A stretch of 64,000 nucleotides of DNA from Escherichia phage BF15. The translations under genes and the position numbers were made by a program. The notes beneath the pieces are model-generated. The model made no database searches, had not been told where the DNA came from, and saw only the letters and a program-made list of their open reading frames with translations. This document shows positions 56,225-56,936 of this stretch, one piece after another; within the stretch, counting starts at the first letter, position 1; the number at the start of each line of letters is the position of its first letter. The stretch lies in sequence record MW822007.1, one strand, 5' to 3'.

Positions 56225-56485
56225 TTAAGCTTTACCGCCAGAAATAATTCCGAAGTTGTTAAAATCATATCCAATATCGTCAACATCTACTTTAGGACTT
56301 GCTACAACATAAGCAATTTCACTACGTTTTGCACAGGTGTTGATTTCTTTACCATCGCCACCTAAGAAAGAATACCCATTACGTTTTAATGAGCCAAAGT
56401 CTTCCGCATCACCAATGAAAGCTTTAACTTTAAATTTAGAACCTTTGGCATCTGCTTCAACGATAAATTCTTGATACATTTTCAT
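56225..56485 (-). CDS. additional internal-protein-like ORF
   Basis: 86 aa; leader MKMYQEFIVEA; own early promoter at 56623-56652. Confidence 0.55.
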   Translation of the reverse strand: MKMYQEFIVEADAKGSKFKVKAFIGDAEDFGSLKRNGYSFLGGDGKEINTCAKRSEIAYVVASPKVDVDDIGYDFNNFGIISGGKA

Positions 56486-56622
56486 TTTTCCTTAGTAAAT
56501 TGATTTACCAAAGTATTTGTACCAAGTCGGACGTTGATCAATTTTTTCATCTAAGCGTGCTTGATTTATCGCAATGGACGCTTCGGACGGGTCATAATTT
56601 CCTCCAAGTAGTTGATGAATGT

Positions 56623-56652
56623 ATAGTATCAAAACCCTTGGAGGAAGTAAAC
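56623..56652 (-). promoter_or_regulatory. T4-type early promoter (extra ip-like gene)
   Basis: minus strand GTTTAC-N18-TACTAT. Confidence 0.55.
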
Positions 56653-56654
56653 AA

Positions 56655-56936
56655 CTATTTTTCTGAAGCGCCTGAAATATATTTTTCAAGACGTTGTTTC
56701 ATCAGCGAGCCGTTCTTAGCGATTTCTTCCGGTTTATCGCACATACGCAACAAGGCTTCAAGCTTAACGATATCACTGGTGCGCTCAAATTTGCGAGTAT
56801 CTATCTTACTAGCAAGTTCAGAAATACGTGCTAATAGACTTTCAGCTTCAACCAAAGCTGCACCTAGCTTAGTTGCAAATGTGTCAGTAGCTTCGTTAAG
56901 AATAGATTCTGATAAAAATTCACTATATGTTTTCAT
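56655..56936 (-). CDS. additional internal-protein-like ORF
   Basis: track ORF trimmed to ATG 56936 ([11 protein letters not shown]...); ATG overlaps lysozyme stop. Confidence 0.5.

Follow-up and report, generated by a model that had tools for sequence, protein, structure and literature searches.

The window analysed is a 64,000-nucleotide stretch of Escherichia phage BF15 (MW822007.1), the genome of which is of the Tequatrovirus type (T4-like phage). Two small genes, here called ipX and ipY, lie on the minus strand between the lysozyme gene e and ipIII. Read along that strand, nudE lies upstream of e (56933–57421, 162 aa), which encodes a T4-type lysozyme (Pfam PF00959, E = 1.5e-13). Directly after e comes ipX (56655–56936, 93 aa), followed by a non-coding-looking stretch of 169 nt (56654–56486) that contains a remnant of denV, and by ipY (56225–56485, 86 aa), which starts MKMYQEFIVEADAKG. 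Next are ipIII (55585–56163, 192 aa) and ipII (55241–55543, 100 aa), the products of which are 94% and 93% identical to T4 IPIII and IPII, respectively, and a vs.8-like gene. An earlier, sequence-only reading of this DNA had placed the two genes at 56225–56936, and these ends match the ipY stop codon and the ipX ATG exactly. Over 2.4 kb around ipX and ipY, many Escherichia and Shigella phages share 93–97% identity with this DNA, and at least 80% of the region is spanned by 69 records.

Two loci carry Ip genes in T-even phages, e-to-vs.8 and 57B-to-trna.4, and ipX and ipY are located inside the former. This locus carries Ip4 in T2, RB32 and RB14, and ipIII and ipII in T4. Both ipX and ipY are accessory, being absent from it in T4, T2 and T6; T6 has lost the entire ipIII-to-vs.3 block, denV included. 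As far as the account of Repoila 1994 is relayed in PMC12373910, both T-even loci are polymorphic, with about 10 further Ip ORFs, and the previous remark that the ip loci vary among T-even phages is in line with it. Alternative ip cassettes in two related phages illustrate cassette turnover at the e-to-vs.8 locus. W143 has an extra 104-aa protein with a capsid-targeting sequence (CTS) between ipY and ipIII (L001, 2820–3134; phrog_3966), and G4498 has a 157-aa Ip4-type protein where ipII would be (L003, 1670–2143).

The sequence-only reading had described two ORFs besides ipII and ipIII as opening with a capsid-targeting leader. In a six-frame translation of the window, the motif MK.Y.EF was matched four times, compared with a mean of 0.015 expected from 200 shuffles, and all four matches are the first residues of the consecutive minus-strand ORFs ipX, ipY, ipIII and ipII, which bears the description out. 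The DNA of the leader is also alike among the four ORFs (ATGAAAAC.TAT...GAATTT.T....GAA). In three of the four, AAGGAAA precedes the leader. The upstream signal of ipY, TAAGGAAAAATG, has a spacer 2 nt shorter than those of ipIII and ipII, while ipX lacks AAGGAAA and overlaps the stop codon of e instead.

The first 10 residues of T4 IPIII suffice to bring a protein, foreign ones included, into the prohead core, and mutagenesis assigned residues 4 and 7 to targeting and residues 8 and 10 to processing; a consensus-like form of the CTS has about 10 residues resembling MKTYQEFIAE (PMC9026906). Both the ipX and the ipY leader possess Y4 and F7. The positions used for processing by gp21, I/L8 and E10, are kept in both as well. 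Prediction of prohead-protease (gp21) sites, a check named in the sequence-only reading, was carried out by motif scan and located the (L/I)-x-E motif in both leaders.

A CTS-like N-terminus was also observed in the early region. The ORF of gene 61.1 (10663–10827, minus strand, 54 aa, phrog_1823), just upstream of the primase gene 61, begins MKTFKEFIKE|D. It agrees with the T4 IPI leader in all of the first seven residues and has an I-K-E site at positions 8–10. We know of no head-protein status for gp61.1. Since such an N-terminus occurs on an early protein, the leader alone is no proof of packaging.

The lysozyme gene differs from that of T4 at its 3′ end. The C-terminus of the protein (56933–56960, minus strand) reads ..TGTWKAYI compared with ..TGTWDAYKNL in T4, which places the ipX cassette junction within the final codons of e. 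The ipX ATG (56936–56934) overlaps the lysozyme TGA (56935–56933) as ATGA, which confirms the start/stop coupling to e described earlier. The overlap is also annotated in the listed close homologues.

Two boxes of the T4 late-promoter sequence TATAAATA are located just upstream of e (57448–57455 and 57435–57442, minus strand) and probably give rise to the late transcripts that run through e and ipX and further. A further TATAAATA box lies inside the ipII coding sequence (55474–55481, minus strand); it may mean nothing, as the window has seven such boxes compared with 11 expected by chance. A hairpin is predicted over the ribosome-binding site and AUG of e (57417–57457, minus strand; −14.9 kcal/mol, z = −4.4). 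In T4, a hairpin sequesters the e ribosome-binding site and AUG in the long (early) transcripts, as reportedly described by McPheeters et al. in 1986. As the hairpin is conserved, translation of e and of the coupled ipX would, by analogy with T4 e, be confined to the late period, when proheads assemble. A scan of the minus strand from e to ipII found no terminator-like site, which makes late read-through into ipY, ipIII and ipII plausible. In addition, a strong early-type promoter precedes ipIII (56192–56220, minus strand; TTTACG-17-TATAAT, TG-extended, 10 of 12 matches).

The ipX product is a 93-aa Ip5-like internal head protein precursor of the RB69ORF127c family. It matched phrog_3499 ('internal head protein') with E = 1e-46 and T2 Ip5 by BLASTP with 48% identity and E = 5e-23, and its identity to the named Ip5 proteins of T2, T6, RB32 and RB70 is 47–52% along the whole length. 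The GenBank notes of T6, RB32 and RB14 liken Ip5 to RB69ORF127c, that is, to the ipX family. The similarity is not confined to the leader: the mature part alone matched T6 Ip5 with E = 2e-19, and homology of the mature part to a named Ip5 was found for ipX only. Hundreds of genomes carry an intact frame, on which purifying selection acts. The unchanged protein occurs on 541 contigs, and compared with JoYop and W143 the gene has four synonymous and no non-synonymous changes.

Two candidate gp21 sites are present in the ipX leader, after E10 (L8-S9-E10|S) and after E15 (L13-N14-E15|A). E15 is invariant in an alignment of four sequences (A2) and kept in seven of the eight Ip5-family sequences of a wider alignment (A3), P0051 being the exception; in 7/8 Ip5-family sequences the pattern (I/L)-x-E15 is followed by A or S. 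E10 varies in the Ip5-family alignment, with K in T2 and V in P0045. Since the E15 motif is conserved across the Ip5 family and E10 is not, the propeptide is most likely the 15 residues ending SILNE|A (56892–56936, minus strand), with a predicted cut after E15, as judged from alignments A2 and A3 and the motif scan. Cleavage there would leave a mature protein of 78 aa and 8.6 kDa. AlphaFold2 modelled ipX as three helices with moderate confidence (pLDDT 74). A Foldseek search of the model against the PDB returned only non-significant matches to coiled coils and designed helices, the best with E = 2.6. The position of ipX fits an Ip5-type cassette placed behind e and the known shuffling between the two IP loci.

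The ipY family carries the label 'internal head protein' in the RefSeq records of G8, G4498, EcNP1, phiE142, SP18 and VR7. Together with the phrog_3499 and Ip5 matches of ipX and the CTS residues of both proteins, these labels support the earlier interpretation of the two ORFs as extra internal-protein genes. The gene is intact in 216 phage records, and it occupies this same locus in no fewer than four genera (Tequatrovirus, Carettavirus, Gaprivervirus and Gelderlandvirus). Nei–Gojobori dN/dS values were 0.08–0.31 in 19 of 21 pairs; the remaining two pairs gave 0.42 and 0.50, each with fewer than 10 differences. ipY is thus under purifying selection.

The predicted propeptide of ipY is MKMYQEFIVE|A (56456–56485, minus strand), with a single gp21-type site, I8-V9-E10|A. 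The predicted mature part has 76 aa, a mass of 8.0 kDa and a pI of 6.4. The gene starts ATG AAA ATG (56477–56497 region, minus strand), so that a second in-frame ATG is codon 3. The first ATG lies 3 nt, and the ATG of codon 3 lies 9 nt, from the Shine–Dalgarno sequence TAAGGA. JoYop, G4498 and others are annotated from the second ATG (84 aa), which would strip 'MK' off the leader. More distant homologues read MKT and have one ATG only.

Assignment of ipY to the Ip7 family was considered and rejected. ipY matched phrog_2667, which also holds Ip7, with E = 2e-19. The hhalign probability was 83% with the leader and 0.2% without it, and the BLASTP comparison with T2 Ip7 was not significant; these comparisons identify the link as an artefact of the shared leader. 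The mature part was unrelated to Ip1, 4, 5, 6, 7 and 9 and to the 104-aa Ip of W143, only the leaders being similar. No Ip number was found for the ipY family among the named Ip proteins compared. ipY accordingly belongs to a distinct Ip family, which has no name among those covered. An AlphaFold2 model built on an alignment of five sequences had a pLDDT of 48 and was unusable.

An exhaustive profile search with ipY added a few more distant members, all with CTS-like leaders. Matches to P0058, P0059 and P0062, long WG-type/FG-GAP-like repeat proteins, were rejected as homologues; their scores were summed over five to six repeats, and the matches were judged a compositional resemblance to the GDAEDFG..NGYSF stretch. 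Truncated variants of ipY also exist, namely P0034, P0041, P0042 and 38-aa remnants in Mosigvirus. A metagenomic protein of 194 aa (P0056) has a CTS leader and an ipY-like domain fused to a second phage protein domain through a linker that carries an L-T-E|S motif. Its C-terminal half matches F27 (OP870146.1, 64475–64798) just downstream of ipY in that phage. Because the F27 relative sits just 3′ of ipY, the second domain may be another Ip-type domain.

The stretch between ipX and ipY holds a denV pseudogene (56492–56595, minus strand), which was found by a match to phrog_1183 and which the earlier account of the interval had omitted. A 65-aa ORF with a TTG start (56689–56492) matches positions 100–138 of 139 of this endonuclease V family. 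Most relatives (G2133, JoYop, W143 and phiE142) have a full 137-aa denV (endonuclease V, UV repair) between ipX and ipY, and T2 has no denV at the e-to-vs.8 locus. In the window, a promoter-like site is followed by a GGAGG ribosome-binding site and the retained ATG ACC CGT, and then by a jump to the last ~100 nt of denV; with the promoter included, the remnant covers 56492–56652. The deletion comprises about 311 nt and is out of frame, leaving a 9-codon ORF (56595–56566, minus strand) and an untranslated denV 3′ end. In the intact denV of G2133, an imperfect 13-nt direct repeat, AATTATG(A/T)CCCGT, marks the two break points. The identical deletion junction was found in 15 of 215 matching phage records, for example G4498, G8, Phaginator, F27 and Shinka.

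The sequence-only reading had credited one of the two genes with its own early promoter. A promoter-like site does precede ipY, GTTTAC-17-TACTAT (56623–56652, minus strand), but it is the orphaned early-type promoter of the deleted denV and has its counterpart upstream of T4 denV. It is the sole promoter-like site upstream of ipY and agrees with 8 of 12 sigma-70 positions, which is below the threshold of the promoter scan. The ancestral arrangement is accordingly a denV–ipY unit with ipY as the second gene. As read from the remnant, the denV promoter now serves ipY alone.

One ipY cluster at 90% identity has a 137-aa DenV representative and mixes DenV with ipY; it was not taken as evidence of a real similarity. 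The predicted 54-aa protein P0042 joins the DenV Pfam domain PF03013 to the C-terminus of ipY. The mixed cluster probably reflects deletion or chimeric ORFs such as P0042 in a deletion-prone locus.

The favored interpretation, given a probability of about 0.65, is that ipX and ipY are functional accessory genes for internal-protein precursors that are packaged, injected and likely to block a defence enzyme. Observed for them are intact frames, membership in Ip families, conserved leader and cleavage motifs, selection and the genomic context; from these we infer packaging, cleavage, injection and a target. ipX would be produced late by termination–reinitiation coupled to e, and ipY would be transcribed both by read-through and from the promoter that once served denV. 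The CTS would bind each precursor to the scaffolding core of the prohead. There gp21 would cut after the Glu of (L/I)-x-E, in ipY after E10 and in ipX after E15 and possibly also E10. The mature proteins of about 8–9 kDa would remain in the DNA-filled head and enter the host along with the DNA. In the host they would most likely bind a defence enzyme and inhibit it, the most probable one being a GmrSD-family type IV subtype attacking glucosyl-hmC DNA.

This host role is proposed by analogy. IPI* blocks GmrS/GmrD (PMC3012670), in agreement with the earlier statement that T4 IPI is an anti-restriction effector, and Ip1, Ip2 and Ip3 each inhibit one distinct GmrSD enzyme without cross-protection (PMC12373910). 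IPIII is required on ECOR17. The earlier suggestion that ipX and ipY may be injected anti-defence proteins agrees with all results obtained here and is already the published view. Neither ipX nor ipY has a family in Pfam or NCBIfam, and profile searches of PDB sequences returned nothing. In virion mass spectrometry of phage fD1, 113–137 of 277 proteins were particle-associated, DenV and lysozyme included; fD1 has denV directly behind e and is without ipX, and the study was therefore set aside as uninformative.

Both proteins might be packaged and yet not inhibit GmrSD, but block another first-line defence or serve in head structure or DNA packing. Ip4–10 showed no reproducible inhibition of five further active GmrSD variants (PMC12373910), although the Ip5 included there, if of the T2/T6 type, is only about 48% identical to ipX. 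Moreover, head assembly is slowed in IPIII mutants and a head-assembly role has been proposed for IPIII, and the conservation of ipY in at least four genera with dN/dS mostly 0.1–0.3 does not look like the hyper-variability of a fast arms race. This alternative is nevertheless regarded as unlikely. All three internal proteins with known targets inhibit GmrSD enzymes. The predicted mature parts are near neutral (pI 6.3–6.4, or 8.1 for ipX cut at E15, compared with 9.6 for IPII and IPIII), which argues against a role as DNA counter-ions. A further point against the alternative is that both genes are accessory and missing from T4, T2 and T6 at this locus. On a tentative and rather doubtful proposal, the members of the ipY family in at least four genera, its more distant CTS-bearing relatives in metagenomes and the fusion protein P0056 would represent an ancient Ip domain, and its conservation, slow evolution and near-neutral charge would point to a conserved host target outside the GmrSD subtypes tested so far, either another first-line defence or a conserved host factor; if true, ipY would represent a new class of injected anti-defence protein.

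The leaders could instead be vestigial, with ipX and ipY working unpackaged inside infected cells, where leader and upstream signals persist only as recombination and translation cassettes. The near-identical leader of the early protein gp61.1, the early-type promoter that drives ipY and the activity of IPIII in the host when expressed without its CTS are compatible with this. It is considered improbable because the targeting and cleavage residues are conserved down to 64% identity in ipY and about 48% between ipX and Ip5, and because ipX is tied to the late-translated e. In addition, as 10 CTS residues are sufficient to package foreign proteins (PMC9026906), a CTS-bearing protein that is present late should be packaged. 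Decay of one or both ORFs into functionless remnants is more improbable by far. The locus is deletion-prone, as seen from the loss of denV in this phage, from the truncated forms of ipY and from T6, which is without the whole ipIII-to-vs.3 block; yet hundreds of genomes keep both frames whole and under purifying selection, and the identical ipX protein occurs on 541 contigs. The interpretation of ipX and ipY as genes for injected internal proteins is weakened by the near-neutral charge, the slow evolution of ipY, the tight spacing between its Shine–Dalgarno sequence and first ATG, and the leader of gp61.1, but none of these points outweighs the evidence from family and context.

The presence of two extra Ip-type genes is thereby confirmed, and it is already known and contains nothing unexpected, since both families are annotated as internal head proteins in hundreds of related genomes. 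Earlier publications already cover the polymorphism of the IP loci, the conservation of the leader, the shuffling of cassettes and the anti-restriction idea (Repoila 1994, as far as it is relayed; PMC3012670; PMC12373910), and both genes fit the 1994 picture of shuffled ip cassettes. Three corrections were gained, in that the promoter ahead of ipY belongs to a deleted denV, ipX is a relative of Ip5 with a propeptide of most likely 15 residues, and the ipY family is distinct from Ip7. Of all phage products, injected internal proteins are the first that host immunity encounters, and since 2025 each of the three T4 IPs has been known to inhibit GmrSD type IV restriction enzymes in a subtype-specific manner. 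Most of the remaining Ip families, both described here among them, are reasonable candidates for an anti-defence screen.

Among the named systems, T4 IPI shares with both genes a small product, an accessory status and a position in a polymorphic IP locus; its N-terminal propeptide is cut after Glu, as is predicted for ipX and ipY, and the mature part of 76 aa known for IPI* is also predicted for ipY. The GmrS/GmrD inhibition carried out by IPI* is the mode of action proposed, by analogy, for ipX and ipY. They have no sequence similarity to it past the leader. IPI* consists of two beta-sheets flanked by helices (PMC3012670), whereas the ipX model, for which the folds were compared, is predicted to be all-helical and dissimilar.

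T4 IPII and IPIII, which inhibit GmrSD-ECOR21 and GmrSD-ECOR17, respectively, belong to the same locus, strand and transcription unit as ipX and ipY. Their 10-residue CTS is nearly identical to those of the two genes in protein and DNA. In contrast, their mature parts are unrelated to those of ipX and ipY and are basic instead of near neutral.

Ip5 (T2, T6, RB14, RB32 and RB70; phrog_3499) and ipX are alike in belonging to the same PHROG, in having a helical mature part, in the invariant motifs KLG.AL.EAE..L..RI.EL and EIAKNG, and in the conserved (I/L)-x-E15|(A/S). They differ in setting and at both ends of the protein. Ip5 is preceded by 57B and has an AGGAAAA ribosome-binding site of its own, whereas ipX lies behind e with the ATGA overlap and no good Shine–Dalgarno sequence. 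The ipX leader is IPIII-like (Y4 and E10), while that of T2/T6 Ip5 is IPI-like (MKTFKEF..K), and the C-terminus of ipX is nine residues longer than that of Ip5. ipY in turn is a member, at 64–100% identity, of the 'internal head protein' family of SP18, VR7 (VR7ORF127c), G8, phiE142 and S16-like phages, with the family core FKV.AF.GDAEDFG..KRNGY.F...GKEI.T.AKR.EIA.VV...KVD..D...DF..FG...GK.
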